Source: Longimicrobiales bacterium (lineage in GTDB: Bacteria; Gemmatimonadota; Gemmatimonadetes; Longimicrobiales; Gaopeijiaceae). From it: a DNA stretch of 64,000 nt. The stretch lies in NCBI GenBank assembly GCA_965198065.1, contig CBDAON010000004.1:1568001-1632000 (forward strand), in the 5' to 3' direction. A program made the position numbers and the translations under genes. A model generated the notes under the pieces. It had not been told where the DNA came from. It did not search any database and saw only the letters and a list, made by a program, of their open reading frames with translations. Below, one piece after another: positions 4,057 to 46,201 of the stretch. Each line of letters begins with the position of its first letter. Positions within the stretch are counted from its first letter, which is position 1.

Positions 4057-5040
4057 CTATTCGGCAAGCGCTCCACGAGAGACGGGGCGCGAGGAGGCCT
4101 CCACGAGCCTCGACGCGCCCAGGAAGATGACACCGAGCCACAGGAGGTCGGCCAGGAAGAGGTGGAGAAGACGGAGCTGCACGGGCTGCAGCAGGAGGAT
4201 CGTGAGCGGTCCGATCACGAGCTGGGCCACGGCGAGCGCGCTCACGCCCGAGGCGATTGCCGACGTGGCCCGATCGGGAGCGCTTCGGCGGGCCGCGACC
4301 GCGAGTCGGAACAGCAGGTAGACCGCCCCGATCGCCACCGCGGGATGGAATATCCTTAGATAGATAAGCACGTGCTCCGGATCGACGTATTGCCCCGCAC
4401 CCTCCGAGAGGCTCTCGGCCGGGAACGCAGTCGTGGCGAGCCCCACCCAGGTGCCGCTCCAGGCGAGCGCGAGCACGGCGAGGCCGGCCAGGACCACCGG
4501 GCGGGCGCGGGGCTCCCAGAGCGACATGGCCCGGGCGACCCCGAGGTGGGCCCACCAGGCGGTGAGCCCCAGGGCGGCCATCAAGAGGAAGGTGTTCGTC
4601 ACGTGGAAGGGGCGGATCATGAGCCTCGCGGTCGAGACATCCGCCGCGACCAGGCCGAAGACCACGAGCACCGCCCCGAACGCGGACTCCGTTAGCGTGA
4701 AGAGTAAGGACCAGCCGGCAGCGCGACGAACCAGATGCCCCCGCGGATGCACGCGGAAGGCCCACACGGCCATGGCGGCGACAAGGACGAGAACGAGCCC
4801 CGAGGAGACGCGATGTCCGAACTCGACCCAGGTGGGAAAGGCCGCTCCCAAGGGAAGGGCTCCGCCGTTGCAGAGCGGCCAGTCCGTGCCGCATCCGTCC
4901 CCTGATTCTGAGAGGCGTAGGAAATACCCCCACAGGATCACGACCAGGGAGTACGCCAGAACGCCCCAGGCGAAACGGGGGAAGCCCCGGTCGCCCGAGC
5001 GCCGGAAGGGGGCAAGATCTCGCGTTGACGCTGTCTCCAA
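4057..5040 (-). CDS. ctaA: Heme A synthase (COX15/CtaA family)
   Basis: GCGTDWPLCNG loop, EFGHR, further conserved His residues in about 8 TM segments. Confidence 0.85.
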   Translation of the reverse strand: METASTRDLAPFRRSGDRGFPRFAWGVLAYSLVVILWGYFLRLSESGDGCGTDWPLCNGGALPLGAAFPTWVEFGHRVSSGLVLVLVAAMAVWAFRVHPRGHLVRRAAGWSLLFTLTESAFGAVLVVFGLVAADVSTARLMIRPFHVTNTFLLMAALGLTAWWAHLGVARAMSLWEPRARPVVLAGLAVLALAWSGTWVGLATTAFPAESLSEGAGQYVDPEHVLIYLRIFHPAVAIGAVYLLFRLAVAARRSAPDRATSAIASGVSALAVAQLVIGPLTILLLQPVQLRLLHLFLADLLWLGVIFLGASRLVEASSRPVSRGALAE

Positions 5041-27300: not shown

Positions 27301-27938
27301 CGTTCGAGCTGGGGCTCTTGTTCGGGACGCTCCCGGTCCGCGTGCTCTCGGCGATCGAGAACACTCCCGGCGGTTCGGAGGAGCTCCGGAGGTTCTTCGA
27401 GGACACGCTCTCGAAGGAGCTGACCTCGATCGGGCCGGCGCCGACGGCCGTCATGCCGCTCATCGAGAACCTCACGAACTGGAGCTTTTTCCTCCAGCGG
27501 CCGATCGTGCCACGGAGCGAGGAGAACGTCCGCGACCGCGAGCAGGGGAACGAGCGGACTTCCGAGATCGCGAAGCTCCTGGCCCGGTGGTCGCCGGGCC
27601 CCGAGGGGATTTCTCCCCGCTCGATCGACAACCTCCTCTATTCGTGGACGGGAGGACTCGGCCGCCTCGCAAGCCGTGGGGTGGACCTGGGCGTCGACGT
27701 CGCTACGGGGAAGCCCCCCGGGCCGACCAGGCAGGCTGCGGACTATCCGGGGATCCGGGGCGTCACCATCCGCACACCCGGGCTCTCGTCAGAGTCCGTC
27801 GAGCGCCTCTACCGGGAGCTCGCGAAGGCTCGCACCGCTCGGGCCACGCTGCGCCACTTCGAGCGCGAGGGCCGCACGGAGGACTTCGAGCGTGAGGCCA
27901 GGGACCCCGAACAGGCGGAGCTCCGGGCACAGGCAACC
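21398..27938 (+). CDS. Large polyvalent protein (~2180 aa): Gly/Ala-rich N-terminus, DdrB-like ParB domain, zeta-toxin-like P-loop kinase, HExxH metallopeptidase-like region, LPD38; +1 frameshift near 22358 and 3'-truncated
   Basis: YTVVEADRLKASH/PIVTPSG..VAGNGR/PVLVRR (~22620-23020); GPAGAGKT..IDAD..HVESS..GRFVDP (~24200-24580); GHEYGH (25164-25181) with EGWAEF; IPKPFELG..ISPRSIDNLL..WTGGLG (~27220-27665). Confidence 0.78.
24633..24661 (+). promoter_or_regulatory. Internal sigma70-like promoter within the end of the zeta-toxin domain
   Basis: TTGAAG (24633-38), 17 bp, TAGATT (24656-61) in a locally AT-rich patch, 62 bp upstream of the nested ATG. Confidence 0.55.
24724..24891 (+). CDS. Nested +1-frame 55-aa protein MAKRDPMDFSFAKGLKREDFERDGILDLEGMADAAAELGRKADRADAAKEKAAQQ; candidate antitoxin/immunity protein
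   Basis: GAGGAAGGAAAGA RBS before ATG; 51 of 55 codons end in G/C in this frame, while the host frame becomes A/T-ending and G/R-rich; below the ORF track length cut-off. Confidence 0.7.
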   Translation: MAKRDPMDFSFAKGLKREDFERDGILDLEGMADAAAELGRKADRADAAKEKAAQQ

Positions 27939-28418
27939 CCTCGTGTACGCTGCCCGGAGGCCCTCCTGGAGCGCCGACGGCGTAGCTACGGCCGCTGCGA
28001 CCCTACGGCCGCTCTGGAACTGGAGGTCGTCCACAGTCGAGAGGTCGAGCGGGTCCTCCATGGCGACGAGGAGCGAGCGCCCGGTGAGGCGCAGGGGGAG
28101 TACCCTTCGCCTGCGCGCGAACCCGGCGTTGACGAGCCTCAAGGCTTCGGCCCCGGGCCGGAGGGGCCCGGCCTCGAACGGAAGCCCGAGCTGCCTGGCC
28201 AGGGTGCTGGCGACCTCGTCCTCGCCAGCGACCCCGAGCCGGGCAATCACCGCGCCGAGCCGCTCTCCGGATTCGCGTTGCGCCGCGAGCGCCCGCTCGA
28301 GGTCGCGGGGCCGGAGTGTCCCCTCCTCGACGAGGAGCGCGCCCAGCACGCGCGTTTTCGAGTCGGCGGCGTCGGGGAGGGCGGTCCTGGGGGCCACGCC
28401 GGACGATAAGGACGCCAC
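27939..28418 (-). pseudogene. GspE/PilB-type ATPase, 5' part (MshEN/T2SSE_N domain)
   Basis: Tandem MshEN-like motifs RVLGALLVEEG..LERALAAQ and RLGAVIARLG..LARQ, then VAMEDPLD..DDLQFQSG..LRAAY; ends at the insertion. Confidence 0.85.
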
Positions 28419-31161: not shown

Positions 31162-31437
31162 TCAGCGGAACTCCTGCATGACCACGAGGATCAGGATCGC
31201 GATCAGGGGGATCGGGACCGCAGCCAGGAGCCAGAGTCGCTTCTGCTCGAAGCGCAAGTGCATGTAGTAGAGTGCGACGAGGAGCGCGCTCGTTATCGAG
31301 ATGATCACGAGCAGCACGATGGCGAGCCACTTGAGCCCGATCGCAAGAGAGACCACAACCTTCCCCGCCATCAGGACCGCCAGAACCCCGAAGATGAGCA
31401 TGTAGGGCGGATGAACCGTCTTTTCACCCGTTTGCAT
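31162..31437 (-). CDS. coxD: Cytochrome c oxidase subunit IV family
   Basis: Y..IFGVL, LVALYYMHLRFE. Confidence 0.85.
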   Translation of the reverse strand: MQTGEKTVHPPYMLIFGVLAVLMAGKVVVSLAIGLKWLAIVLLVIISITSALLVALYYMHLRFEQKRLWLLAAVPIPLIAILILVVMQEFR

Positions 31438-31450
31438 GTGAGCTCCCCTC

Positions 31451-32077
31451 CTAGATCAGGTAGACGATGGTGAAGAGCACGATCCACACCAAGTCCACGA
31501 AGTGCCAATATAATCCCACGATCTCCACGGGGCCCAGCTTCCCCGAGCTGAATGCCCCCGTCCGGGCGCGAAGCAGCACCCCGGTCAGCGCGAACACGCC
31601 GATCGTCACGTGCGTCCCGTGGAAGCTCGTCATGAGGTAGAACGTGGAGCCGTACAACGGCCCGCCCTCCGCCGCGTATAGATCGACGACCGGAACGAAG
31701 CCCTCGCGTGCTAGGCCGACGTACTCGTACAGCTGGATCCCCACGAAGGCCGAGCCCATGATGATCGTAGCCAGGAGCCAGAACTGAAGCCCCTTCTGGT
31801 CGTCCTGCTGGATCGCGGCGTACGCCTTCACCATCGTCACCGAGGAGCAAATCAGCATGAAGGTGTTGAACGCCGTGAGCTCGATGGAGAGGACTGCCCC
31901 GGGCTCCGGGAACTGATCCGGGTGGGCGAAGCGCAGGATGATGTACGCCCCGATGAGGGAGGTGAAGAACATCACCTCGGACAAAAGGAAGATCCACATC
32001 CCGAGCTTCAGGTTGTAGAACTCGAACGTGCGCTCGAGCTGAGTCTGGCTCCTCACCGCCGCCGCGTGACTGGTCAT
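31451..32077 (-). CDS. coxC: Heme-copper oxidase subunit III
   Basis: KLGMWIFLLSEVMFF, FHGTHV, LYWHFVDLVW. Confidence 0.93.
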   Translation of the reverse strand: MTSHAAAVRSQTQLERTFEFYNLKLGMWIFLLSEVMFFTSLIGAYIILRFAHPDQFPEPGAVLSIELTAFNTFMLICSSVTMVKAYAAIQQDDQKGLQFWLLATIIMGSAFVGIQLYEYVGLAREGFVPVVDLYAAEGGPLYGSTFYLMTSFHGTHVTIGVFALTGVLLRARTGAFSSGKLGPVEIVGLYWHFVDLVWIVLFTIVYLI

Positions 32078-32088
32078 CGTCCGTCTCC

Positions 32089-33867
32089 TCAGCGGGCGGG
32101 GTGGTGGGCGGGGGTGGGGACCTCGGCGCCGCCGGGTTCCCATTGTGGGGTGAAGTCCTCGGGGGCCCCGGGGACGCTGTACTCGTGCGGTCCACGATAG
32201 ACCCTCGGGATCTCCCGGAAGTTGCCGTGCGGAGGCGGCGATGGGGCGGACCACTCGAGGGTGGTCGCCTTCCACGGATTCTCATCCGCCTTCTTCCCCC
32301 ACCGGATCGAGTAGAGGAAGTTCACCATGAAGATCATCTGGAACGCGAAGAGCGCGAACGCCGAGTACGAGATAAAGGTGTTCAGGGGCTGGAATTGCTG
32401 GAGGAACGCGTACTGGTTCGGGTCGTAGAGCCGGCGCATCATCCCCTGAAGGCCGAGCTCGTGCATGGGGAAGAAGACCAGGTTGTAGAACACGAACGTG
32501 CCCCAGAAGTGGATCTTGCCCCACAGATCGTTCATAAGAGTTCCGAACATCTTCGGGTACCAGTAGATGATCCCCGCGAAGATCGCGAAGAGGCTCCCCC
32601 CGAAGAGCACGTAGTGGAGGTGGGCCACGATGAAGTAGGTGTCGTGGATCAGGATGTCCACCGGTGTCGCGGCCATGAAGACGCCTGAGAGGCCGCCGAT
32701 GATGAAGAGCGCCACGAAGGCCACCGCGTGGAGGAAGGGCACGTGGAAGACGATGTTCCCCTTCCAGAGCGTCCCCAGCCAGTTGAACACCTTGATGGCC
32801 GATGGGACCGCGATCACGATCGTCGTGAACATGAAGGTGGTGCCGAGCATCGGGTTCATCCCGCTCATGAACATGTGGTGGCCCCACACGATCCATCCGA
32901 GGAACGCGATCGAACAGAGTGCGAGCACCATCGCGTGGTATCCGAAGATCGGCTTCCGAGCGCCGTTCGAGATGACTTCCGAGACGATCCCCATGCCCGG
33001 CAGAATGAGGATGTAGACCTCGGGATGCCCGAAGAACCAGAAGAGGTGCTGCCAGAGTAGCGGCTCACCCTGGTTTGCCGGGAGGAAGAACGTCGTCCCC
33101 ACCGCGTGGTCGAAGAACAGCATGATGATCGCCCCTGCCAGGATCGGCATGGCCAGGAGCGCGAGGATCGCCGTGATGAAGAGCGCCCAGACGCTGAGTG
33201 GGAGCCGGAACCAGGTCAGCCCCGGCGCCCGCATGTTGATCACGGTCGTGATGTAGTTCACGGCTCCCGTGATGGACGAGAAGCCCAGGATGAAGAGGGA
33301 GAGGAGCCAGAGCCGCTGGCCCCAATAAACCCCCGTAAAATCGCCGTCGGCCGAGAGCGGAGCGTAAGCCGTCCATCCCGAACCCGCGGCTCCACCCACA
33401 GTGAAGAAGCTCGCGAGCATCAGGAAACCAGAGGGTACCGCGAGCCAGAACGAGAGCATGTTCAGCCTGGGGAAGGCCATGTCTGGGGCCCCGATCTGAA
33501 GCGGGATCAGGAGATTCCCGAAGACCCCCACGAGGAGCGGCATGATCGCGAAGAAGATCATGAACGTGCCGTGCATGGTGAGCAGGGAGTTGTAGAACTC
33601 GGGTAGGATGATCCCCCCCGGTGCCATCGTTTCCGGGAGGACCGTCCCTCCCGGCATGGGCTGTCCCGGAAAGCCCAGCTGCCACCTCATCATCAGGGCC
33701 ATGATCCCGCCCAAGAGCATGAAGATCAGGCTCATGAACAGAAACTGCTTCCCGATCGTCTTGTGGTCCGTCGAGAAGATGTACTTCCGGATGAACGGGA
33801 TCTCCTCGTGGTGCTCCTCGGCATAGGGGAGGAGGTCGTAATCCGTTCTCGTCGCCGTCACGCTCAT
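32089..33867 (-). CDS. coxA: Cytochrome c oxidase subunit I, A1 type
   Basis: MHGT, WFFGHPEVY, WGHHMF, HDTYFIVAHLHY, GMMRR. Confidence 0.96.
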   Translation of the reverse strand: MSVTATRTDYDLLPYAEEHHEEIPFIRKYIFSTDHKTIGKQFLFMSLIFMLLGGIMALMMRWQLGFPGQPMPGGTVLPETMAPGGIILPEFYNSLLTMHGTFMIFFAIMPLLVGVFGNLLIPLQIGAPDMAFPRLNMLSFWLAVPSGFLMLASFFTVGGAAGSGWTAYAPLSADGDFTGVYWGQRLWLLSLFILGFSSITGAVNYITTVINMRAPGLTWFRLPLSVWALFITAILALLAMPILAGAIIMLFFDHAVGTTFFLPANQGEPLLWQHLFWFFGHPEVYILILPGMGIVSEVISNGARKPIFGYHAMVLALCSIAFLGWIVWGHHMFMSGMNPMLGTTFMFTTIVIAVPSAIKVFNWLGTLWKGNIVFHVPFLHAVAFVALFIIGGLSGVFMAATPVDILIHDTYFIVAHLHYVLFGGSLFAIFAGIIYWYPKMFGTLMNDLWGKIHFWGTFVFYNLVFFPMHELGLQGMMRRLYDPNQYAFLQQFQPLNTFISYSAFALFAFQMIFMVNFLYSIRWGKKADENPWKATTLEWSAPSPPPHGNFREIPRVYRGPHEYSVPGAPEDFTPQWEPGGAEVPTPAHHPAR

Positions 33868-33898
33868 TTCCGCGCCCTCGTGGGTTAAGGCATGCTGG

Positions 33899-34648
33899 TC
33901 AATTGTCCGCCCCGGTTCCGCCGCTCTGGCTGGCCGCACCACCGTTCCCTCCTGCGGCGGCCAGATTCTGGGCTCCTGGGGCGGCTCGCGTCGCGATCTG
34001 CTCAGCCTCCCACGCCTCGAACTCGGCCTGGGTCTGCACGATGACCGTGCCGTCCATCGTGTAATGACCGAACCCGCAGAGTTCGGCGCACCCCAGCGTA
34101 TACTCTCCGGTGGTCGTCACCTCGAACCAGATCGGGATCGTCCGCCCGGGAATCGCGTCCTGCTTGATGCGAAACGGGTACACGAAGAAGGAGTGGAGCA
34201 CGTCCTCGGACTCGAGGTGGATCACCACCGGTCGGTTCACCGGTATGTTCAGGCGGTTCAGGAGCGTGAAGTCATCGGCCGTGCGGAGCTGGCCGTCCGC
34301 GCCCGGATAAGCTGCCTCCCACTCGAACTGACGCGCCGTCAGGACGATCTCGTAGCCGTTCGTGGGGAAGGCGCTCGGGTCCTTGAGTCTTTCCCACACG
34401 CCTTTGCTCATGAAGGCCAGCCCGATCACGATCACGGAGGGCACGACGGTCCAGATCACCTCGGCCTTCGTGCTCCCGTGAGTGTATTCGGCCTTCTGAC
34501 CTTCTCTCGCCCGGTACCGGAACAGGAAGTAGACCAGGAGGACCTCGGTGAGGACGAACACCGCGCCCGTGACGATCAGGATGGCGTAATAGAGGCGGTC
34601 GATGTCCGCGCCGTAAGTCGACACGCTCTCGGGGAGCAACCAGTTCAT
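33899..34648 (-). CDS. coxB: Cytochrome c oxidase subunit II (CuA, no fused cytochrome c)
   Basis: EVIWT, DVLHSF, KQDAIPG, CAELCGFGHYTM. Confidence 0.95.
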   Translation of the reverse strand: MNWLLPESVSTYGADIDRLYYAILIVTGAVFVLTEVLLVYFLFRYRAREGQKAEYTHGSTKAEVIWTVVPSVIVIGLAFMSKGVWERLKDPSAFPTNGYEIVLTARQFEWEAAYPGADGQLRTADDFTLLNRLNIPVNRPVVIHLESEDVLHSFFVYPFRIKQDAIPGRTIPIWFEVTTTGEYTLGCAELCGFGHYTMDGTVIVQTQAEFEAWEAEQIATRAAPGAQNLAAAGGNGGAASQSGGTGADN

Positions 34649-34698
34649 TCGCTCTCGTCTCCTGATCCCGCCGCTGACGGGACTCGGTCAGAGGTTGA

Positions 34699-35556
34699 TC
34701 AAAAACCTGCGGCGCTCATGGCGACCGGCCCGTGGTCGTGCGGATCGAGCGGCTCCCCTAGCGGAACGACCGCGTTCGCGATCATCCCCTCGTTGAACGT
34801 GAACGTGACCTCAGCCGTCTGCCCGGTCGTCACGGTAACCGTCTGCTCCTGGGTCCCGAGCTGCGAGTGCCAGGCCTCGATTACGTACTCACCCGGCGGG
34901 AGATCTCTCAGATCGAAGGTACCCCCGGCGTCCGAGGCCGCGTGATACGGGTGCGAAGTTACCCCGACGAACGCGTACATCCACCCGTGCACGTCGCACT
35001 CGATCGGAATCATGATCTCGGGAGAGGCGAGCGTTCGATTCATCGTCGGGACCGCCCCTGGCATCCCGAAGTTGAAGGGCCGGTTCGTGGAGGGCGACCC
35101 GCTGACGTTGTGGAGCACGCCGTCCGAGTTACGGAACGTGAGAGTCTGGTCCGCTTGCACGCCGACGACGTGAGGGATGTATTGGCAGCCGTCCTGGTTG
35201 ATCTCGACCGCGGCGCCCGGCACGGGGAAGGTCATGCCCTCGAGCCCCTCCCTCACGTAGATGAAGACGTCGGCCAGGTGCCCGTCTGCGACCTTGAAGT
35301 CCTCGGTCGTGGGGGGCGTCGGGTGCTTGGCCGCACACGCCTCCTCCGAGGATACGTCGATCGGGGAGTTGGCGGGTGCCGTTCCCTCGAACATAACTAT
35401 CCCGCTCACGTGTCCGGCCGTTGCCACGTCGAAGGGCATCTCCGCCGGAGCGGCCGCGGCGCCGCCGCCACCGGAGTCTCCCCCTCCGCATCCCACGGCC
35501 GCGACCGTGAGAACCGCGGGTGCCAGGGCCTTGAACAGCCTCTGCTTCTTTCTCAT
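34699..35556 (-). CDS. Lipoprotein with cupredoxin-like copper site and carboxypeptidase-regulatory-like beta-sandwich
   Basis: AVGC lipobox; NQDGCQYIPHV, LHNV, CDVHGWM (C-x2-H-x2-M); DLPPGEYVIEAWH. Confidence 0.7.
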   Translation of the reverse strand: MRKKQRLFKALAPAVLTVAAVGCGGGDSGGGGAAAAPAEMPFDVATAGHVSGIVMFEGTAPANSPIDVSSEEACAAKHPTPPTTEDFKVADGHLADVFIYVREGLEGMTFPVPGAAVEINQDGCQYIPHVVGVQADQTLTFRNSDGVLHNVSGSPSTNRPFNFGMPGAVPTMNRTLASPEIMIPIECDVHGWMYAFVGVTSHPYHAASDAGGTFDLRDLPPGEYVIEAWHSQLGTQEQTVTVTTGQTAEVTFTFNEGMIANAVVPLGEPLDPHDHGPVAMSAAGF

Positions 35557-35559
35557 GGT

Positions 35560-37221
35560 CTATCCCTCCGGAGTGAGTTCAAGTTCAGGATCAAGTCGAA
35601 GCGCCTGCGACCGCAGGGGCCGCTTCCACCCCCCCTCCTGCTCCCGCTTCTTCGCGCGCCCAACGGCGAGCAGCCCGAGGCCTCCGGTGAGCAGGAAGGC
35701 GACGAACGGCGCGATATAGGTGGAAGGAGGCGTCTCCTCCTCGAGGGTGAGGAAGTACCAGGTGCTGATGGCACCTCGCGTTCCGTCTTCACCACTGTCT
35801 CCGTCCCAGGCGAAGAACGCGACCGGGACCGGTCGGCCGAGCTCGAAACGCAGCTCGCCCTCCCCATCGGTCGGCTCGAACGCGCGGTGGAACACGACTT
35901 GCCACTGTCCGTCTATCCACTGGGCGTCGGAGGTGAGGCCCCCCGCCCCCATCGTCTGGATGTCGCCGATCCCCCGGGCGGTCGCCCGCTGGGCCCCCGC
36001 CTGGTCGCCCTGCCACTGCCAGAGATGGACCGGCGTGCGCGAATCCCCCATAAGAAAGTACGGCCTATCCATCGCTTCCGGGATCTCGACCGGGAGCTGC
36101 ACCGTGAGCCGGTCGGGCCGCGCCCCGGGCTCCCGCCCCGTTCCCTGCGGCTGGAGGGAGGCGAGCACGCGGGGCTGCCAGAGCTCGAGCCACTGGGGAT
36201 CGGGGCTCTGGGAGCGGTCGGTCCAACTCACCCGGATCGCCAGCTCCGCGCTGTCGTGGATGCCCTGGACCCACACGGACCTCACCGCCGGTTCGAACGC
36301 CCGGTCGCCCGTGATGATCTGTCCGACGAGGGGAACGTAGAACGACTCCACGCCGTTCCAGCGCTCGTCCGAGGCCGTTGTCGGAACCCCGGTTCCCTCC
36401 TCGGCGCGCTCGACCACGATGACCTCCCGGACCTCCGGAGGATCCTCGGGAGAGAGGCTGCGCACGTAATGGGCCAGGCTCCACATCTGCTCGTCGGTCA
36501 TGAATCCCGCGTCGAGCAGGTCGGCGAACTGCGGCATCGGGGTCCCGTCGAGCCCGGTGCGGAGCCTCCGAGAGATGTCCTCGACGCTGCCGCCGCCCGT
36601 GAACCGCCAGTTCTGCGTGAGATCGGCCGCGTGAATGGGGTTCTCCCAGTCGTCCTCGAGCTCGGCCGAGCCCGGGCCGTCGCCTCGCCCCGTCTGGCCG
36701 TGGCACTGCCAGCACTCGATCTCGTCGTAGAAGCGGCGTCCCTCCTCGAGCCGCTCCTCAGAGGCGCTCCCCGCGCCGGAGAAGCTGAGCGGAGTGGGAG
36801 CCGGCAGGCTCTCGAACTGCGGATAGAAGCTCTTCACGTACTGGACGAGCGCCTGGCGATCGCTCTCCGGGAGGAGGTCCTCCCACCCGGGCATCGTCGT
36901 GCCCGGCATCCCCAGATTGATCACCTCGAGGATGTCGTCGTCCGTCGGGATGTCGCCACCGGCGGTCGTCCGAATCTGGAAGAGCCCCCGCGTGAAGTCC
37001 CTCGGCCTAGGCAGCATGTACTCGGCGGCCACGCCCATCCCGTCGCCCTGGAGACCATGGCACTGGGAGCACCACTGCTCGTAAACGACCCGACCGGGCT
37101 CGACGTCCTGGGCCTGAGCGGGCGCGGGGACGAGCGTGCCTGCTGCGCCGAGCGTGCTCGTCAGGAGCATTGAAACCATCGCGCCGGTCACTACCGCGGG
37201 GATGCTCGTGGTTGGGCGCAT
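35560..37221 (-). CDS. Diheme cytochrome c fused to an ethylbenzene dehydrogenase gamma-like (DOMON heme b) domain, with C-terminal TM anchor
   Basis: CSQCH, CWQCH, PRPRDFT; PYFLMGD..HLWQW, GQWQVVFHR, PVAFFAWDG; true start 37221 (ATGA overlap). Confidence 0.8.
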   Translation of the reverse strand: MRPTTSIPAVVTGAMVSMLLTSTLGAAGTLVPAPAQAQDVEPGRVVYEQWCSQCHGLQGDGMGVAAEYMLPRPRDFTRGLFQIRTTAGGDIPTDDDILEVINLGMPGTTMPGWEDLLPESDRQALVQYVKSFYPQFESLPAPTPLSFSGAGSASEERLEEGRRFYDEIECWQCHGQTGRGDGPGSAELEDDWENPIHAADLTQNWRFTGGGSVEDISRRLRTGLDGTPMPQFADLLDAGFMTDEQMWSLAHYVRSLSPEDPPEVREVIVVERAEEGTGVPTTASDERWNGVESFYVPLVGQIITGDRAFEPAVRSVWVQGIHDSAELAIRVSWTDRSQSPDPQWLELWQPRVLASLQPQGTGREPGARPDRLTVQLPVEIPEAMDRPYFLMGDSRTPVHLWQWQGDQAGAQRATARGIGDIQTMGAGGLTSDAQWIDGQWQVVFHRAFEPTDGEGELRFELGRPVPVAFFAWDGDSGEDGTRGAISTWYFLTLEEETPPSTYIAPFVAFLLTGGLGLLAVGRAKKREQEGGWKRPLRSQALRLDPELELTPEG

Positions 37222-38006
37222 CACTCGAGCTCCTCCCAGGTCCGAGGTGCAACCCCGGCCTGCTCGTAGAGGAAGATGGTGACGGCCCAGATCTCTTCCG
37301 CGGTCAGGAACTCCTCCCACGCCGGCATCGCGGAGTTCCAGGGCGCCCCTTCGCTGGGAAGGCCGGGTCCCCCCTTCGCGATTCGCCAGAAGACAAAGCT
37401 CTCGGTGAGCTGCGCGATAGTGCCGCCGCCCCGGAGGGTAAGAGGCTGGGGATTGAACCCCAGGGCGAAGTGCCCGAGCCCGTCCAGGTAGTCTCCATGG
37501 CACGCGAGGCAGTTCTGGTAGTAGACCCTCTTTCCGACCTCGAAGGCCTCCTCCACCCGTCCCTCTTCCCGGAGCGGGTTTTCGAGCCCGTTCAGGACCA
37601 TCGTCTCGCCCCGGAACGTGATCTGCGTTGGGTTCGCGGGATGGATGGAGCGGAGCGAGGGCGGGGCCGCGAACTTCGGGCGCACGGTGTCGTAGGTGAC
37701 GACCGCGACCAGCGCCGGGACGAGCACCAGGAAAGTGGCCCTCAGGATCCGGCGCTCGGGCTTCACGAGGAGGCTCCAGATCGGACCCTGGAATGTCCTC
37801 CATCTCTCCTCGTCGGAGCTGACCCACACCAGGAGCCCCACCAGCACGGTCACCGTATACTGGAACACGACGCTCGACGGAACCGGCGCGCTGGCAACAC
37901 CCAGGACGGGCGGGACATAGGGGATCCCGAAGCGGATCACGACGAAAGCCAGGACGACGACGAGCACCGACTGCCAGAATGGGTGCCCGAGGAAGTGTTT
38001 CATCAC
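37221..38006 (-). CDS. Membrane-anchored monoheme cytochrome c
   Basis: About three N-terminal TM segments; CLACH; SAMPAW distal Met. Confidence 0.85.
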   Translation of the reverse strand: MMKHFLGHPFWQSVLVVVLAFVVIRFGIPYVPPVLGVASAPVPSSVVFQYTVTVLVGLLVWVSSDEERWRTFQGPIWSLLVKPERRILRATFLVLVPALVAVVTYDTVRPKFAAPPSLRSIHPANPTQITFRGETMVLNGLENPLREEGRVEEAFEVGKRVYYQNCLACHGDYLDGLGHFALGFNPQPLTLRGGGTIAQLTESFVFWRIAKGGPGLPSEGAPWNSAMPAWEEFLTAEEIWAVTIFLYEQAGVAPRTWEELE

Positions 38007-38788
38007 TGCATTCCCGAGAGGTAGCCGACCACCGCCTCGAGCTGGGTGGCGGACAGGCGATCCCCGAAATTGGGCGGCATCATCATCACGAGTTCCTCGT
38101 ACCCTGCCGACGCCTCCGCCTGCGGATCCAGGATCGCGCGGCGGATCTCCTCGGGCGTGAGCCGGGCGCCCACCTGGGTCAGGGGGGGGCCCACCGGAGT
38201 GCCCTCACCTCCGATCTGATGGCACTGGAAGCAGAGGGTCAGGGTGATCACGGCGGGATCGGTGGAAGCGATCTCGAACCCGCCGGCCGGAGTGGCCCCT
38301 TCGGGCGCTGCCTCGGGCGGGATGTCCGCCCCTGTGACCGTGACCTCGCCGCCGTTCGACTCCAGGTACGCCACGATGGACCAGATCTGGGCCTGGCTCA
38401 TTGTGCGGTCTAGCGCCAGCATGATGGGCGGGAAGTCGTCCACGAGGTGATCGGTGGGCGCCACAAGGGATTGATGAAGGTATTCCTTGCAGGACAGGCC
38501 TGAGATACGGGTGCCGCAGCGTGCGCCGATCGTGCCCTGGCCCTCGTAGTCAGAGAGCAGGTTCGGCGCGCGCGCACCCGGAGACTCGGCGTGGCAGGCG
38601 GTGCATCCTCCGGCGCCGGTGAAGAGCGCCTCTCCGGCCGAGACGAGCTCCTCTGGGGAGATGTCGGCCCCGAAGGCCAGCACTTCCGGCACCTCGGACT
38701 GGACCTGTGGAATGATGTTGGCCACCAGCGTATAGAACCCGATGGTGGCGAGCACCACCCCACCGACCTTCAGATCTATCGAACCCAT
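38003..38788 (-). CDS. Diheme cytochrome c
   Basis: CTACH and CFQCH; PIM and MMPP distal Met motifs. Confidence 0.88.
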   Translation of the reverse strand: MGSIDLKVGGVVLATIGFYTLVANIIPQVQSEVPEVLAFGADISPEELVSAGEALFTGAGGCTACHAESPGARAPNLLSDYEGQGTIGARCGTRISGLSCKEYLHQSLVAPTDHLVDDFPPIMLALDRTMSQAQIWSIVAYLESNGGEVTVTGADIPPEAAPEGATPAGGFEIASTDPAVITLTLCFQCHQIGGEGTPVGPPLTQVGARLTPEEIRRAILDPQAEASAGYEELVMMMPPNFGDRLSATQLEAVVGYLSGMQ

Positions 38789-38802
38789 GACCCTCGACCC
38801 CC

Positions 38803-40629
38803 TCAGTGGCCCGGGGCGGGTTGGAGCCCCGTGTCCAGGTCTCGTCCACGCCCCTCTTCAGGGCCGCCAGCCATCGCCGGACGGGGCGCCGGCGTCGCCT
38901 CACGGGCCTTCACGGGGGCGATCTCCGGCTTCGCGATCATCCCCCCGATCCAGAACACGAACGCGATCATGGCGAGGAACAGGAGCACGCACCCGCTGAT
39001 GACCTGCGCTGCGTACCCGAGGGCTGGCGTGGCCGCATAGTCGCTAGTGTCGCGCAAGACCTCGTAGACGTGCCAGTGCTGCCGGATCCCGCTTCTCGCG
39101 AATCCCATGAGGCCCATGAGCCACGTGAAGGTCACGACCAGCACGAAGAGGGCGTATTGCGACCGCGGGGGCATCTGCCCCCAGCGGATCTCGCCCCGCG
39201 ACTGGGCGCGGCGCGCGATCAGGATGTCGAGCGTGAGGACGGCGAAGATCGTGAAGATGACGATGAGCACCTGGTAGACCGAGAAGCCGATCCGCACGAT
39301 CGCCGGGACGAAGTAGCCCCAGATCCCGTAGAACAGGACCACGAGTGCCGCCACCCCGATCACGATCCCCTGGGTGATCGTCCCCGTCTTTGCCCACGAC
39401 ACGGCGGGAATCTTGTTCGCGCGACGGTAGAGGAGGAACGACAGGAACGTGGTCAGGATCATCAGGTTCACAGCCGTGTTCTTCGCGCTCATGACCCCGA
39501 GGGCGCCGAGGAAGGGGTGGAACGTGCCGCCCATGGCGGTCAGCTCCTCCCGGTCGGCAATCATCGAATGGGGCGTGGCCCACACGATCACGCCAATCAC
39601 GAGAACGAGGAGCATCCATTTCGTGTAGGGCGCGAACCGCTCGCCCCCGGGGATCCGTCCCAGGCCCACCCAGAGATAGTAGTTCCCAGCCAGGAAGAGG
39701 ACGCCGATGAGGAAGGCCTGCACGATCCAGAGCCAGCTCATGAAGCCGCCCATCATCGTGACGCCCAGCTGCTGGTTGAACTCGTAGATCTCACGGCCCA
39801 GCCAGTACCCGGCGAAGGGGAGGAGAAGGAAGGTCCCGATCGCGATGAAGTTCCCGACGTAGCCCATCCAGTCGTAGTGCGCCCGCTCCTCCTCGGACTC
39901 GGACTTGAGGAAGCGGTACGCGGCGTACGCGGCCACGATCGACCCGCCGAACACCACGTTCGCGATGAGCCGGTGGATGTTGATGGGCATCCAGGTGGCG
40001 TTCGCGAAGGCGCTCCAGAACTGGACCGTCTCGGGAGCGACGTCCGGCGTGAGCTCCCCGGGAGGGCTCATCATGAACGTGATCCACGCGTTCGCGATGA
40101 ACATCACGACCGTTCCCCAGACGTTCAGGAGCAGCCCCAGCCCCCAGTGGACGAGCTTCGCGCGTCCCTTCTTCCAGTGCTCCCACCCGTAGTAGTACGT
40201 GTAGAGCGTCGCCGACTCGAGGAAGAAGAGCGCCGCGTAGACCCACATGGAAACCCGGAACACGGAGCTCAGGTAGCTCCAGAGCTGCGGGTACTGCGTC
40301 GTGAGGAGGAAGAGGAAGAGCCCCCCGAGGAGCGCCGTGGCGCTGTATGCCACGAGGAGGAGGCGCGTGAACTCCTTTGCGAGGCCGTCGTAGCGCTTGT
40401 CGGTCCCGAAAATCCCGATCGCCTCCGCGATCACGGCGAACATAGGCACGCCGAGCACGAAGGCGGCGAACATGAGGTGTACCTGGGCCACGATCCACAC
40501 GGCGGCCCGGCTCCCGATGAGCGGCACGTCGGCCCCGTACGCGGGCGGGGCATAGCCCTGAGCGAAGAGCGGGATCGCCACGGCGGTCGCGGCGAGTGCC
40601 AGGAGCCCGGGCAGGATCCTCCGCTTCAT
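38803..40629 (-). CDS. Cytochrome bd-like oxidase subunit I (CydA-like, no Q-loop)
   Basis: HLMFAAFVLG, FFLES, IANAW..FMMSP, IHRLIAN, MGFARSGIRQHW; 13 or more hydrophobic segments. Confidence 0.8.
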   Translation of the reverse strand: MKRRILPGLLALAATAVAIPLFAQGYAPPAYGADVPLIGSRAAVWIVAQVHLMFAAFVLGVPMFAVIAEAIGIFGTDKRYDGLAKEFTRLLLVAYSATALLGGLFLFLLTTQYPQLWSYLSSVFRVSMWVYAALFFLESATLYTYYYGWEHWKKGRAKLVHWGLGLLLNVWGTVVMFIANAWITFMMSPPGELTPDVAPETVQFWSAFANATWMPINIHRLIANVVFGGSIVAAYAAYRFLKSESEEERAHYDWMGYVGNFIAIGTFLLLPFAGYWLGREIYEFNQQLGVTMMGGFMSWLWIVQAFLIGVLFLAGNYYLWVGLGRIPGGERFAPYTKWMLLVLVIGVIVWATPHSMIADREELTAMGGTFHPFLGALGVMSAKNTAVNLMILTTFLSFLLYRRANKIPAVSWAKTGTITQGIVIGVAALVVLFYGIWGYFVPAIVRIGFSVYQVLIVIFTIFAVLTLDILIARRAQSRGEIRWGQMPPRSQYALFVLVVTFTWLMGLMGFARSGIRQHWHVYEVLRDTSDYAATPALGYAAQVISGCVLLFLAMIAFVFWIGGMIAKPEIAPVKAREATPAPRPAMAGGPEEGRGRDLDTGLQPAPGH

Positions 40630-42044
40630 CCCTTCCCTCCGTTTCGAAGGAAGAAAGGAAGACGGCGGGAGAAATCCACGGGCATTCGCCGGCGAACTTC
40701 CGCGATGAGATCGAGATCGACGGTCTCGTGTCCCTCCCGGCGCGCGAACTCCTCCACCCGGTTCACTACGACTCCACGTACGAAGCTCGGGATCCGGTCG
40801 ATGCGGGCCTCAGCCTCGGCACTCCAGCGGAGCGTGCGCACGGCCTTCGCGCTGTAAGTCACGGCTGGCCGGGGCCGAACGACCGGCCGCCCGCCGGGCG
40901 GATCGTACGCGCAGGACTCGTCCGGGCCGAGGAGGTCGCCTGTTTCCGCGTGCGCGCGCGCCCTGCAGCCCCCGCACACCTCCCGGAACTCACAGCGACC
41001 GCACTTGCCGCCGAGCGTTCCGGCGCGAAGCGAGCGAAAGACGGGAGAGCCATCCCAGATCTCGCGGAAGGACGACTCCCTGAGATCGCCCGCGACGACC
41101 GGCGTATACGGGCACGGCGTCACCTTCCCTTCGGGCGTGATGCGGCAGTAGTGGAGGCCGCAGGGGCAGCGGGTCGCGTAATTCAGGAGCGGTGAGTCGG
41201 GATCGCCCAGGGAGACATGGCGCATCAGCTGTGGTTGGCACTTCGACCGGACCATCATCCGCCCGCGATAATCGGCCTCGAGGGTCATCAGCTCTCGAAG
41301 GACGTCTTCGTTCTCCGCCGCTGAGAGGCCCTCCATCTGCTTCCCCCGGCCCGTAGGCACGAGGAAATACACGTTGAACGAGACGGCTCCACGGTCCGCG
41401 GCCCACGCCGCGAGGCGGACCAACTCGCGCCGGTTTCCGCGGGTGAGGCTCGTCTGGATCACGAAGTCCAGCTCGTGCTCGACGAGGCGATCCACGGCGG
41501 CCAGCGTGTCCGTCAGGGCGCCCTTCCCGTGGCGGAAGCGGTCGTGGTACTCGGGGTCGAGCGAGTCCACGCTCACGGCGACGCCTGTCACTCCGGCTGC
41601 CTTGAGCGACCCGATCCGCGCGGACGTCAGCCGGGTGCCGTTCGTGCCGACCACCACGGTGGCCCCCCGCTCCGCCGCGTGCTCGGCGACCTCCTCCAGA
41701 TCCTCGCGGAGGAGCGGCTCTCCCCCCGACAGGATCAGCATGGGGCTCGGGTTCACCTCGAGGAGCTCGTCCAGGACTCGGTGACACTCGTCCGTCGACA
41801 GCTCGCCGTCCGCCGCGTGCCAGGAACCGGCCGAGATGTAGCAGTGGGCGCACGCGAGGTTACAACGCTTAGTGAGGTTCCACGCCACCACGTGTGGAAG
41901 GAACGTCTCCGCTTCCGAGCCGAGCGAGGCGAAGCGCTCGGCAAGGGCCCGGCGGCCCCACGGAGCCGGCCGGGGCGTCAGGAGGGCGCCGAGCCCCTCA
42001 CCGGAGCCCGCCGGTAGAGAGGTTCGATCGAGGGAAGAGCTCAC
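40626..42044 (-). CDS. Radical SAM/SPASM protein (AhbD/NirJ-like) with C-terminal PCP_red-like domain
   Basis: CNLACAHC, SGGEP, CPCG..VTPC..CGRC..CGGCRARA..C; tail WSAEAEARIDRIPSFVRG..VEEFAR. Confidence 0.85.
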   Translation of the reverse strand: MSSSLDRTSLPAGSGEGLGALLTPRPAPWGRRALAERFASLGSEAETFLPHVVAWNLTKRCNLACAHCYISAGSWHAADGELSTDECHRVLDELLEVNPSPMLILSGGEPLLREDLEEVAEHAAERGATVVVGTNGTRLTSARIGSLKAAGVTGVAVSVDSLDPEYHDRFRHGKGALTDTLAAVDRLVEHELDFVIQTSLTRGNRRELVRLAAWAADRGAVSFNVYFLVPTGRGKQMEGLSAAENEDVLRELMTLEADYRGRMMVRSKCQPQLMRHVSLGDPDSPLLNYATRCPCGLHYCRITPEGKVTPCPYTPVVAGDLRESSFREIWDGSPVFRSLRAGTLGGKCGRCEFREVCGGCRARAHAETGDLLGPDESCAYDPPGGRPVVRPRPAVTYSAKAVRTLRWSAEAEARIDRIPSFVRGVVVNRVEEFARREGHETVDLDLIAEVRRRMPVDFSRRLPFFLRNGGKG

Positions 42045-44071
42045 TCGTCGGCGTCCTCCGCCCCCGACATGAACCGTTCGACCGCGGCACGGGCGTCCTC
42101 CGGGGAGACCATCTTCAGGTCCACCGGGCACTTCTCGACCTGCTTCTCCACGTCCCGGATAGGGCAGCGGGTGATCCCCTGCGCCTTCGCCTCCTCGATG
42201 AACTTTCTCATCTCGGGGGTGAGCCCGTCCACGCCCTCGGCTGCCGCCCTGATCTGCTTGGTCTGGAGCTCACGGAACATCACGAGCATGGTGTCCATAT
42301 CGAACTCGTCGGCCTCGATCATGGCCTGTTTGTTCTCATCCATGATCGGGGTCGTGACCTGCCACACCGCGTGCTCCTTCGCGAAGCGCTCCACCGTGTT
42401 TCGAGCGAGAGGGCGGGCGACGAGCGGGACGGCGCGGAGCCGCTCGAACGCCTCCTCCGTCCAGACGATCGGGTCGTGGGCGTTCCGCTCGCGGGTCTGG
42501 AGGTGTCCCGTGTAGGGGCACGTCACCTCGATCGTGGGAGCTTCCGGTACCGGGTCCGCGTCGCTCCCCTGGACCACCGTGCGCCGCATCGCCTCCTCGG
42601 CCTTCACCTCGGCCAGCGCCAGTTCTTCGGCCGTCCCGATTCCCATGATGAGCTGCATGTGGGTGGGGAGGAGCTTCTGGATCGCTTCGTCAAGCCGCTC
42701 ACCCGTAACGGTCGGAAGCAGATCCATCGCGTGCGCCCCGTTCCCGTCCGAGCGGGCCGTCCGGCCCCCGTAATTCTCGAGGACGAACTCCTCCACCGCT
42801 TTTCGCGCGATGCCCAGCGCAAACGGCGGCACCCTCAGGATCCGGACTTCGGCGTCGGGCGCCCACTCGAGCCCCTTCTCGCCGTCCTCCTCGATCCACG
42901 GGATGTCGTCGGGGCGCACGTCGGTCGTCCCGACCAGCAGAACGTTCGTGGGCGCGAGCCGGCAGAGGTTTTCGGCCTGCGAGCCCATGTCCGTGCCCTC
43001 CACGCGGTGGCCGCCGTGACGGGCGACGATCAGGAGCGAGGGGTCGATCTCCTCAGCCCACTGCAAGATGCACTGGAAGGGCTTTCCGATGAGGATCTGG
43101 GTCTCCAGCTCCACGTCTGGGAACTCGCTCGCCATGATCTCGGCGCGCTTCAGGTTTGCCTGGCAGAGCTTCAGGAGCCCCTTGTCGATTATGTTGTTGT
43201 GGAGCTCCTCCTGCTCCTCGAACTTGAAGACCTTCGCGGCCTGCGCGGAGAGGACGTCCTTGATGTTGCCGAAGACGACGTGGTGATACTCCACGTCGAA
43301 GGCAGAGCAGGCGTACAGCTTTGCGCCGAACTCCCGGGCCAGCTCGAGCGCGACCCGCATCGCCTTGTAGGAATAGGACGACCCGTCCACGCAGATCATC
43401 CAGCGACCCCCCTCGAGCGGGCGGTCATTCCGGACGATCAGCGTGTCCTTCTCGACCCTCCGGATCACGCGCGAGACCACGCCGCCTAGCTGGGAGAAGG
43501 GCTGTCGCCCGATCCCGTGGGCTCCGATGCAGACGAGGTCGTAACGCCGGCCGCTCTCCCCAGCGAGCTTCTCGTCCTGGGATTCGTCCTCCGCCACGAT
43601 GCGGCCGTCCTCGTCGAGCCGGACGTCGCTTCGCACGGTTGAGCCCCCGTCGTACTTGTCCGCGATGTTGGGGTCGAAGCCGATGAGGCTCGGAAGCCGG
43701 CCCGCGCCTCGATCGGCCTCGCGGATGATCTCCTCGAAGTTGATCCCCTCGAGTAGCTGACGGGTGAGGGGAACGCCGGACTCCTGGCAGTACCGCTCGG
43801 TCTGATCCAGGAAAGAGTCCGAGATGAGCTGGAGGCCCTTCTCGATCAGCTTGTCGTGGACCTTTCTCTGCCGCTTGATCTCTTCGGGAGTCTGAAACTG
43901 CGCGGGGAGGCCGGTTTCGAGCTGCCGGAACCGAACGTCGTGGAGACGGGCGGCGTAGACGTGGTTCCCGGTGATACGGCCCTCGGATCTCTTGGTGATC
44001 TCGACGGCTCTCTGTACGGCCCACTGAGAATGGGACGAGTTATCGACCGGAACGAAGATCTCGCGGTACAT
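42041..44071 (-). CDS. Tandem universal stress protein domains plus two PCP_red-like domains
   Basis: MYREIFVPVDNS, IGAHG..GGV, CVDGS, ARHGG..GSQAE; WAPDAEVRILRVPPFALG and WTEEAFERLRAVPLVARP. Confidence 0.8.
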   Translation of the reverse strand: MYREIFVPVDNSSHSQWAVQRAVEITKRSEGRITGNHVYAARLHDVRFRQLETGLPAQFQTPEEIKRQRKVHDKLIEKGLQLISDSFLDQTERYCQESGVPLTRQLLEGINFEEIIREADRGAGRLPSLIGFDPNIADKYDGGSTVRSDVRLDEDGRIVAEDESQDEKLAGESGRRYDLVCIGAHGIGRQPFSQLGGVVSRVIRRVEKDTLIVRNDRPLEGGRWMICVDGSSYSYKAMRVALELAREFGAKLYACSAFDVEYHHVVFGNIKDVLSAQAAKVFKFEEQEELHNNIIDKGLLKLCQANLKRAEIMASEFPDVELETQILIGKPFQCILQWAEEIDPSLLIVARHGGHRVEGTDMGSQAENLCRLAPTNVLLVGTTDVRPDDIPWIEEDGEKGLEWAPDAEVRILRVPPFALGIARKAVEEFVLENYGGRTARSDGNGAHAMDLLPTVTGERLDEAIQKLLPTHMQLIMGIGTAEELALAEVKAEEAMRRTVVQGSDADPVPEAPTIEVTCPYTGHLQTRERNAHDPIVWTEEAFERLRAVPLVARPLARNTVERFAKEHAVWQVTTPIMDENKQAMIEADEFDMDTMLVMFRELQTKQIRAAAEGVDGLTPEMRKFIEEAKAQGITRCPIRDVEKQVEKCPVDLKMVSPEDARAAVERFMSGAEDADE

Positions 44072-44384: not shown

Positions 44385-44413
44385 AGTATATCTGGCCCCT
44401 ATATGGCTGTCAA
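44385..44413 (-). promoter_or_regulatory. Near-consensus sigma70 promoter with palindrome over the -10
   Basis: Minus strand TTGACA-17 bp-TATACT; inverted repeat GGCCAG-TATAT-CTGGCC at 44381-44397. Confidence 0.75.
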
Positions 44414-44450: not shown

Positions 44451-45170
44451 CTATCGGAGAGCAGCGCTGATCCGTTTGAGGAGGGCGCTCGACAGGGCCG
44501 TCGAAGCCAGGAGAAAGAAGACCAGAACCGCTGCGGCCGGTAGCATGTCCCAGCCCCCCGGGGGTGCAACCCCCTGCGCTCCCGCCAGGAAGACCTCGTG
44601 AAGGGGACGGTAGGGAAGAATCATCTCGATCCGGGCCCCGAGGCTGCCTGGAGCCGGCGTTCGGAAGACTCCGGATCCGTGGAGCAGGAAGAGGGAGAGG
44701 ACCGCGGCGAGAAGGGCGCCCTCGGCCATCGAGGCCGCGAAGGCCGCGACCCAGAGCCCGACGAGGTTTGCGGTGAGGAGGGCGAGGAACAGGGCCGGGA
44801 CGACGGCCGTCCATACCGTGACCCCGGCGCGGCCCGCTCCGAGTACGAGCGCCATGGCCGGGAGGAGCTGGAGGAGATCGAGGGCGGTTCCCGCCATCAT
44901 GCGCTCGACCACGAACCTCGGCTCCGGGAAGCCGCTTAGGATGATTCTCCGAAGTGGTCCACCGTCGGCCTCCCGGAGGAGCGGGATCGTGGAACCGAAC
45001 GTTCCAAAGAGGACGAAGAGCACCGCGTAGGTCGCGGACGCGTGGTACGCCGGCGCGCCCCCGAGCGCGAGCGGCGCGACGAGTAGCACGGGCGTCGCGA
45101 CGTTGAACGCCATGAGGCGCCTGCGCCGGAGCGCGATCCGCCACTCGACCGCGAAGACGTCGAGGCTCAC
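44451..45170 (-). CDS. ABC-2 type exporter permease
   Basis: About six TM segments; coupled to the ABC ATPase gene. Confidence 0.7.
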   Translation of the reverse strand: MSLDVFAVEWRIALRRRRLMAFNVATPVLLVAPLALGGAPAYHASATYAVLFVLFGTFGSTIPLLREADGGPLRRIILSGFPEPRFVVERMMAGTALDLLQLLPAMALVLGAGRAGVTVWTAVVPALFLALLTANLVGLWVAAFAASMAEGALLAAVLSLFLLHGSGVFRTPAPGSLGARIEMILPYRPLHEVFLAGAQGVAPPGGWDMLPAAAVLVFFLLASTALSSALLKRISAALR

Positions 45171-46201
45171 GGCCGTTCCGGAGACGGGAGATCGGCCGAG
45201 AGCTCGAGCGGCTCTCCCGTGACAGCGTGGAACAGGTCGCCCAGCTCGGGCTCGCGAACCCGGACCCGCGTGATCGAGACGCCCTTTGCGAGAAGCCGGG
45301 TAAGGAGCTCGGGGAGCGGAGTGGATCCGCGGGTGCTCTGAACGACGATGGCCTCCCCTCGGCCATCCGACGACACCGCCCGCCGGACCGACTCCGCCCC
45401 CGGCACCGTCTCCAGCTCCCAGGTCGAGCCTGTGCGCTCACGGTCGTGGTCCGGCCGGAGGGTGCCGACGAGCTCGATCTCGATCGTGGTCTTCCCATCG
45501 AGTCGATCGAGGAGCTCGGCGAGCGGGGCGTCGATCGCGATCGATCCCCGATGGAGGAAGAGGATGCGATGAGCCCACCGGGAGGCTGCCCGGGTATCGT
45601 TCGTCGCAATCACGGCGGCGCCTCCGGCGGCTGCGCGCTCGCGGACGGCTTCCTCGAGCGCACGGGTCCCCGCGGGGTCGAGCCCGACCGTGGGTTCGTC
45701 CAGGAGCAGGAGAGGGGGTCGGAAGGCCAGGGTCTCCACGAGAAGGAGCTTCCGCCGCATCCCGAACGAGAGCTCGCTCACGGGCACGTCTCCGACCTCC
45801 TCCAGGCCGAAGGCCGCGAAGAGCTCCGAGACGCAGGCCCCTCCACGGCCATCCCGGCCGCCCCGGAGCCCCGTGAAGAAGCGGACGCTCTCGCGCGCCG
45901 TGAGGTGTGCGAAATGGCGGGGGCTGTCGGGTGCGTACCCAATCCCGGGTCGGAGCCGGCGAACGGACCCGCGGACGCGCTTGCTCAGGAGCGAAAGCGA
46001 GCCCACGGTCGGGCGGAGATCGGTCGCCAGGAGCCTGAGCAGCGTGCTCTTTCCGGAGCCGTTCGGGCCGATGGCCGTCACGATCTCACCCGGACCCACG
46101 GAGAAGCTCACGGGACCGAGACCGGTCCGCCCCGACCGGTACCGGTATCCCATCCCCTCCGCGAGGATCAGAGGTCCCAGCCGGCCCGTGCCAGCATCCA
46201 C
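45167..46201 (-). CDS. ABC transporter ATP-binding protein
   Basis: GPNGSGKST, LSFGMRRK, LLLDEPTVGLDP; start approximate. Confidence 0.88.
   Translation of the reverse strand: MDAGTGRLGPLILAEGMGYRYRSGRTGLGPVSFSVGPGEIVTAIGPNGSGKSTLLRLLATDLRPTVGSLSLLSKRVRGSVRRLRPGIGYAPDSPRHFAHLTARESVRFFTGLRGGRDGRGGACVSELFAAFGLEEVGDVPVSELSFGMRRKLLLVETLAFRPPLLLLDEPTVGLDPAGTRALEEAVRERAAAGGAAVIATNDTRAASRWAHRILFLHRGSIAIDAPLAELLDRLDGKTTIEIELVGTLRPDHDRERTGSTWELETVPGAESVRRAVSSDGRGEAIVVQSTRGSTPLPELLTRLLAKGVSITRVRVREPELGDLFHAVTGEPLELSADLPSPERP

Follow-up and report, generated by a model that had tools for sequence, protein, structure and literature searches.

We analysed a 64,000-nucleotide stretch of a Longimicrobiales genome (hereafter the window; GCA_965198065.1, contig CBDAON010000004.1, G000:C4:1568001-1632000 in our sample), in which a gene for a cytochrome bd-like subunit heads three cytochrome c genes and a copper lipoprotein gene that run on into coxBACD, the genes of a heme-copper oxidase. 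The bd-like subunit is, by its sequence, an OR-N member of the cytochrome bd superfamily. An earlier, sequence-only reading of the window had taken this module for an unrecognised substitute for complex III, but the genome carries a complete alternative complex III (ACIII) of its own, which points to a second cytochrome-fed, oxygen-reducing branch and not to a complex III stand-in. Tentatively, and with slightly less than even confidence, we favour a bd-like subunit that forms with the three cytochromes a cytochrome c-fed O2 reductase working parallel to aa3. The source assembly is 3.05 Mb and 87.6% complete, which bounds each statement below on genes not found in it.

The OR-N subunit and its gene run

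The bd-like gene (38803..40629, on the minus strand like the other genes of the run) encodes a CydA homologue of 608 aa. PF01654 is matched by residues 40-285 only, corresponding to profile positions 2-241 of 418; the Q-loop half of the profile is unmatched, and the predicted model has long helices in that region. The sequence-only reading was thus right that there is no large Q-loop, and the quinol-site residues K252 and E257 have no counterparts. Alignment to canonical CydA (in E. coli numbering, which in part follows Murali et al.) pairs H51 with His19, E138 with Glu107, H161 with His126, H219 with His186, M380 with Met393 and R516 with Arg448, so that the histidines equivalent to the b595 and b558 ligands are indeed kept as H51 and H219. 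Tyr131 occupies the position of Glu99 and Ser513 that of Glu445 (counted back from R516), both replacements being family-wide, and GFARSGIRQHW stands in the alignment in place of the E-x-GRQPW motif, as had been read. H51, Y131, E138 and H219 are invariant in 62/62 Gemmatimonadota sequences, and Y131 is common to all four paralogues of Nitrospira (N.) defluvii. The key residues are H51, Y131, E138, H161, H219, M380, K383, M505, M508, R512, S513, R516 and H520; all 13 inspected positions are identical in the N. defluvii copies at 877 kb and 3263 kb.

An AlphaFold2 model of residues 24-588 (predicted local distance difference test 93.6, 101 sequences) has 13 long helices, and a hydrophobic N-terminal segment (residues 5-23) adds to these to give the approximately 14 helices of OR-N N1 and N2. 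Searched against known structures, the model matched CydA chains best (Z 32-35, root-mean-square deviation 3.5-4.5, ~355 positions aligned), followed by ActC chains (Z 19-20, deviation 4.1-4.4, ~325 aligned). In two trees, one with three canonical CydA rows and one with six, from which two truncated canonical rows had been dropped, a 100/100 split on a long branch separates the protein from canonical CydA and groups it with the bd-like proteins of Nitrospirota, as the earlier reading had anticipated. The trees place it within OR-N, the backbone of which they leave open, and like the OR-N core it has neither a heme c motif nor a quinol site in subunit I. Compared with the canonical cytochromes bd of E. 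coli and G. thermodenitrificans, the fold and the equivalents of H19, E107, H126, H186 and M393 are common, whereas CydB, the Q-loop, Glu99 (Tyr) and Glu445 (Ser) are lost, helices are added and the clade is separate.

Among the N. defluvii paralogues, the 877 kb copy is the best match (52% identity, 611 bits, against 565, 475 and 276 bits for the others), and by gene order we equate it with the NIDE0901-type protein. NIDE0901-like proteins are named OR-N2 in PMC12342949, and our subunit probably belongs to OR-N2 as well. It shares with OR-N and OR-N2, as described in bioRxiv 10.1101/2021.01.16.426971 and PMC12342949, the CydA fold, about 14 hydrophobic segments and the lack of a quinol site and of CydB, with a second CydA-like gene often absent; it differs in being the sole CydA-family gene and in being tied to an A1 oxidase. 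With no other CydA-family gene found in the genome, there is no partner for the proposed N1+N2 pair here, barring a gene that the assembly lacks. No PF02322 (CydB) match was found in the window, in agreement with the earlier reading, or as a partner elsewhere in the genome. A CydB encoded at a distance was also rejected for the module genomes inspected (e.g., G186, G060 and G033), where CydB adjoins a canonical cydA of its own.

The nine genes from the bd-like gene to coxD were recovered just where the sequence-only reading had placed them, from 40629 to 31162 on the minus strand. Directly after the bd-like gene come a membrane-anchored diheme cytochrome c (38003..38788), a monoheme cytochrome c with three predicted membrane helices (37221..38006), a 553-aa protein joining a diheme cytochrome c, an EB_dh (DOMON-type) domain and a C-terminal membrane helix (35560..37221), and a cupredoxin lipoprotein (34699..35556). 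These are followed by CoxB (33899..34648; TIGR02866 above cut-off), CoxA (32089..33867; the sole PF00115 gene found in the genome), CoxC (31451..32077 from its likely start, the longest open reading frame reaching 32275) and CoxD (31162..31437). Intergenic gaps in the run are -4 to +50 bp, with 31 bp between coxB and coxA and 11 bp between coxA and coxC from the likely starts. The run stands as first read, but the unit is larger: upstream lie a radical SAM/SPASM protein with a PCP_red domain (40626..42131; profile matches), possibly a dedicated heme-maturation enzyme, and a USP-domain protein with PCP_red domains (42041..44071 from the likely ATG start, longest open reading frame to 44170), a likely accessory factor. 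Both follow a conserved sigma-70-type promoter-like site, TTGACA-17-TATACT (44385..44413, minus strand; 11/12 consensus matches), which is the likely transcription start, and usp to coxD would presumably form a single transcript.

Conservation was followed in 200 other Gemmatimonadota genomes, mostly of one class, with kin among them that are not independent, and with the unpublished G155 counted in; other phyla beyond Nitrospirota were sampled through 77 metagenome loci. A bd-like orthologue at E<1e-250, our measure of module presence, occurs in 58 of the 200 genomes, spanning 7 families and 29 genera, and those close homologues that carry a name (72-85% identical) are assigned to Gemmatimonadota or Longimicrobiales. 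The diheme cytochrome c gene follows in 58/58 loci, and coxA lies downstream with order kept in 54/58, so that the cox linkage held up; in the remaining four the contig ends 2.2-4.8 kb past the bd-like gene start, before coxA. The full set of 11 genes is present in 48/58 loci and the order is violated in none, a conservation far beyond chance. Three genomes have a second, ~50% identical paralogous module without neighbouring cox genes (L063-L065). Of the 77 metagenome loci, one (L224) has a divergent module (55%) followed by cupredoxin and cox, and the modules of L172, L178, L180 and L241 are not followed by them.

Cytochrome c domains are fused to the bd-like subunit in three scanned representative proteins, and the fusion in P0122 spans the whole diheme protein (34% identity, E 6e-41). 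The EB_dh protein matches 6h5l_B through its diheme part (E 2e-52) and also matches 2ivf_C (E 4.5e-6); the former chain we take to be the anammox protein Kustc0457. The diheme and DOMON domains of the earlier reading are present, but the Lys heme-ligand position of EbdC is not kept, being G, M or S in 57/60 rows; Met391 is present here. This protein is the equivalent of alt_NxrC_2 of Nitrospira. In the lipoprotein, H149, C187, H190 and M193 are invariant in 53 sequences, and the model has a cupredoxin fold matching amicyanin and pseudoazurin; a type 1 copper site of His-Cys-His-Met is predicted on it.

CoxB carries the CuA motif noted earlier and no CxxCH. CoxA has the six His ligands, HPEVY and what we take to be the D- and K-channel residues, which make it A1-type, and the aa3 label is supported by the heme A synthase CtaA encoded in the window outside the run (4060..5040, minus strand). 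With these CoxA motifs, CuA and heme A synthase, the oxidase has the sequence features of an A1 (aa3) enzyme.

A usp gene precedes the module in 57/58 loci, the remaining one being cut, and a radical-SAM orthologue at E<1e-160 occurs in 58/58 module genomes and 0/142 others (next matches 1e-66 and 1e-61). The protein resembles AhbD and NirJ2 but falls under both cut-offs. In N. defluvii and a second Nitrospira genome, a homologue with 39-41% identity stands behind a USP/PCP_red gene at some distance from the modules, whereas two module-free Gemmatimonadota yielded none at E<=1e-15. A housekeeping role in heme b synthesis is less likely because ferrochelatase and ChdC-family genes lie elsewhere in the genome, although the enzyme may still be an anaerobic backup for heme b; the USP/radical-SAM pair may be dedicated to maturing a cofactor. 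In 33/52 loci, the 250 bp before usp contain TTGACA, against 1.55 in shuffles, and control by FNR or Rex was set aside, as boxes matching the consensus occur in 0 and 1 of the 52 upstream regions. Further upstream, window positions 44451-47968 encode an ABC transporter pair, a small PCP_red protein and an Fe-S carrier of the mrp/ApbC kind, whose gene (mrp) comes before usp in most loci. PCP_red domains are found in three proteins of this neighbourhood.

The family is known but uncharacterised, and its present genomic context was not met in print. In a literature search that most subscription papers lay outside, we found no link of an OR-N module to an A1 oxidase and cupredoxin in an NXR-free genome, no USP/radical-SAM pair tied to the module, and no paper joining Gemmatimonadota with "bd-like", although the supplements of bioRxiv 10.1101/2021.01.16.426971 may list Gemmatimonadota or the cox link. 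Kin clusters in the literature are bd-like_3/alt_NxrC_2 of Nitrospira (PMC6606698), TO_1 of Manganitrophus (bioRxiv 10.1101/2021.11.15.468770) and kustd1712-1709 of Kuenenia (PMC6423088). Our module shares with this TO_1/alt_NxrC_2 type its four genes (bd-like gene, two cytochromes c and EB_dh-type protein), and their order equals that of the 3263 kb cluster of N. defluvii, a genome with cupredoxin homologues near the cluster and its USP/radical-SAM pair elsewhere. In contrast to these clusters, no NXR was found here, the run goes on into coxBACD, and the USP and radical-SAM genes are adjacent.

Complex III in the genome and the phylum

The observation that the window holds no ActABC genes is true but misleading. 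A PF03916 search match beyond the window led to a complete six-gene actABCDEF operon (C4:1655378-1662997, or L003:9379-16998, minus strand) ~23 kb past the right window edge. It encodes ActA with five hemes, ActB of 1002 aa, ActC, ActD (PF11821, E 8e-43), ActE with one heme and a membrane protein of 433 aa that is called ActF by position only. No oxidase gene stands beside this operon, and no PF00033 cytochrome b gene was found in the genome.

Scored by ActC alone (E<=1e-40), ACIII is present in 191/201 genomes, which suggests that it is nearly universal in the sampled Gemmatimonadota; PMC9426454 has it annotated in under 10%. ActC occurs in 57/58 module genomes, the exception (G183) having a strong cytochrome b match, and PF00033 is matched in 27/58 module genomes and 83/142 others. 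No anticorrelation of the module with bc1 or ACIII is seen, and this distribution implies that the module does not replace complex III. No act gene lies within any of the 58 module loci; the module differs from ACIII in having no ActA, ActB or NrfD genes, ACIII being encoded separately, and the structural likeness of ActC to the CydA fold is a distant one. A CydA-family match was found in 104/201 genomes and CydB in 69/201, and the 53% figure for "cytochrome bd oxidase" in PMC9426454 may include OR-N proteins.

The oxidase, too, can exist without the module. The module-linked CoxA sequences form a clade (support 100/98) that includes three family-f8 sequences from module-free genomes. In this organism's own family, the single CoxA match is of the linked type in 9/9 module genomes, and in the other 15, which also have one match each, it is a different CoxA; CuA-only oxidases without the module serve further members of this family (L071-L075). 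The own ACIII operon and the ActC counts rule out the substitute proposed earlier, and these module-free CoxA sequences weigh against it as well. Neither was the idea wholly unrecognised, since PMC3578206 suggested in 2013 that bd-like cluster proteins might act like alternative complex III.

Roles considered for the module

A cytochrome c-fed reductase is favoured because ACIII would oxidise the quinol, the module has no known quinol residues, and PMC8026999 describes an aerobic nitrite oxidiser that has bd-like proteins only and lacks both canonical bd and a heme-copper oxidase, so that by elimination some member of the family probably reduces O2. Murali et al. place OR-N among reductases that draw on a different electron donor. 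The unmatched Q-loop half, the invariance of H51, Y131, E138 and H219 and the identity with N. defluvii at 13 positions are consistent with this role, as are the natural fusions of bd-like subunits to cytochrome c. Distribution adds two points: the three module-free f8 genomes with the same CoxA clade all have canonical CydB, and in family f7 the module is present in 11/11 genomes and CydB in 0/11.

In such a chain, ACIII would feed both the bd-like module and aa3 through a shared wire of cytochrome c and cupredoxin. Electrons would pass from menaquinol through ACIII to the diheme/EB_dh protein and cupredoxin, from which one branch would run through CuA to aa3; the other would run through the two membrane cytochromes c to the H219/M380 heme (b558 site) and on to the H51 heme, with the proton route to the latter kept by E138 and H161. 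Y131 may serve as an electron source replacing the third-heme site whose Glu is lost. Maturation of the subunit's cofactor by the USP/radical-SAM pair would be the weakest step. The wiring is our inference; the data themselves show the genes, their order, the residues and the co-occurrence with ACIII.

Several points weigh against an O2 reductase. The equivalents of Glu99 and Glu445 are lost, the same residue set occurs in the anammox-type locus L178, and in Kuenenia it is nitrite oxidation and not O2 that the cluster goes with (PMC6423088). A backup for low oxygen would not normally be expected under a housekeeping-type promoter that has no FNR box. CydB is found in 13/58 module genomes and 56/142 others, a weak complementarity among kin that are not independent, and within the organism's own family in 0/9 and 1/15, respectively. 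Other Gemmatimonadota place a Cyc2-like electron input in the same slot before diheme cytochrome, cupredoxin and cox, and no purified or characterised OR-N enzyme was found in the literature search, with its coverage as given above.

That same slot lends something to a different role, which we consider possible but unlikely: the module as a second menaquinol:cytochrome c oxidoreductase, built on the CydA fold and feeding aa3 parallel to ACIII. The grammar of input, diheme c, cupredoxin and coxBA is like that of the Cyc2-like loci L079-L081, the b558 ligand pair H219/M380 is kept, and ActC chains are the structures next in line after CydA. Metagenome locus L170 has actA-actB-actE and then a bd-like gene with no actC, actD or actF between, redundancy is evidently tolerated (PF00033 in 27/58 module genomes), and such a role was proposed in reverse in PMC3578206. 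However, known quinol-site residues are missing, ActC already serves 57/58 module genomes, the same CoxA clade is module-free in three genomes, other members of the own family run on CuA-only oxidases without the module, and L170 is one contig seen in part. Slightly less probable is a third complex III architecture alongside ACIII, in which a bd fold with a radical-SAM-modified heme would form a supercomplex with aa3 wired by cupredoxin.

A detoxifying reductase for nitric oxide, nitrite or peroxide, co-expressed to protect aa3, seems quite improbable. It would suit the occurrence in anaerobic anammox clusters, a radical-SAM gene most like the NirJ2/AhbD heme enzymes and, as we infer, a proton route with an open heme site, but it leaves aerobic nitrite oxidisers with only bd-like proteins unexplained, and the conserved run is without nitrogen-oxide genes. 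Most doubtful is a docking and branching hub that would take electrons from a periplasmic oxidoreductase and send them both onward to aa3 and uphill to quinone. Such a hub has been proposed for NXR in Nitrospira (PMC6606698, PMC3578206), and L180 has two modules beside a Rieske and molybdopterin enzyme pair, but here the EB_dh heme-ligand Lys is not kept and a PF00384 search of the genome found no NXR or other type II DMSO-family donor, its three matches reading as a formate dehydrogenase-like protein, ActB and NuoG.

Related loci and significance

On the metagenome contig L170 (3478-12355), actA-actB-actE are accompanied by mrp, a PCP_red gene and a bd-like gene with a cytochrome c fusion, which could hint at a bd-like subunit as membrane arm of an ActAB complex, this being one locus with half the contig seen. 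In L180 (46-20839), an NrfD gene, two genes for diheme peroxidase-like proteins, a Rieske gene and a gene for a molybdopterin enzyme, presumably arsenite oxidase- or iodate reductase-like, come before two bd-like modules in tandem. In three other Gemmatimonadota (L079:7836-14815, L080 and L081), what we take to be a Cyc2-like porin-cytochrome motif, a diheme c, the same cupredoxin family and cox lie in one run that resembles an outer-membrane electron uptake chain. Our own run shares with the Cyc2-diheme c-AcoP-aa3 chain of Acidithiobacillus (PMC4059628) a diheme c and a membrane-bound cupredoxin with a CuA aa3; the cupredoxin here differs in being amicyanin-like with an extra Ig-like domain, and in place of a porin-cytochrome a bd-like module of the inner membrane stands upstream.

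Away from the module, window positions 21966-28409 encode a protein of 2147 aa whose ddrB-ParB, zeta-toxin-like kinase and LPD38 domains are characteristic of the large polyvalent proteins of mobile elements. The contig (G000:C4) also encodes at least eight paralogous secreted monoheme proteins of ~460-490 aa with near-identical N-termini, several in tandem (e.g., at C4 118000, 1757632-1760827, 2708074 and 2779504-2786848).

The way in which Nitrospira and Nitrospina reduce O2 has yet to be settled, with OR-N proteins as the main candidates, and the present genome offers a simpler test case, with one CydA-like gene instead of four paralogues and no NXR found. The USP and radical-SAM proteins are a candidate maturation pair that would probably be needed in any expression construct. 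The outcome would matter either way, as the module may prove to be either a bd-type oxidase that takes its electrons from cytochrome c or a quinol oxidase with a new fold.

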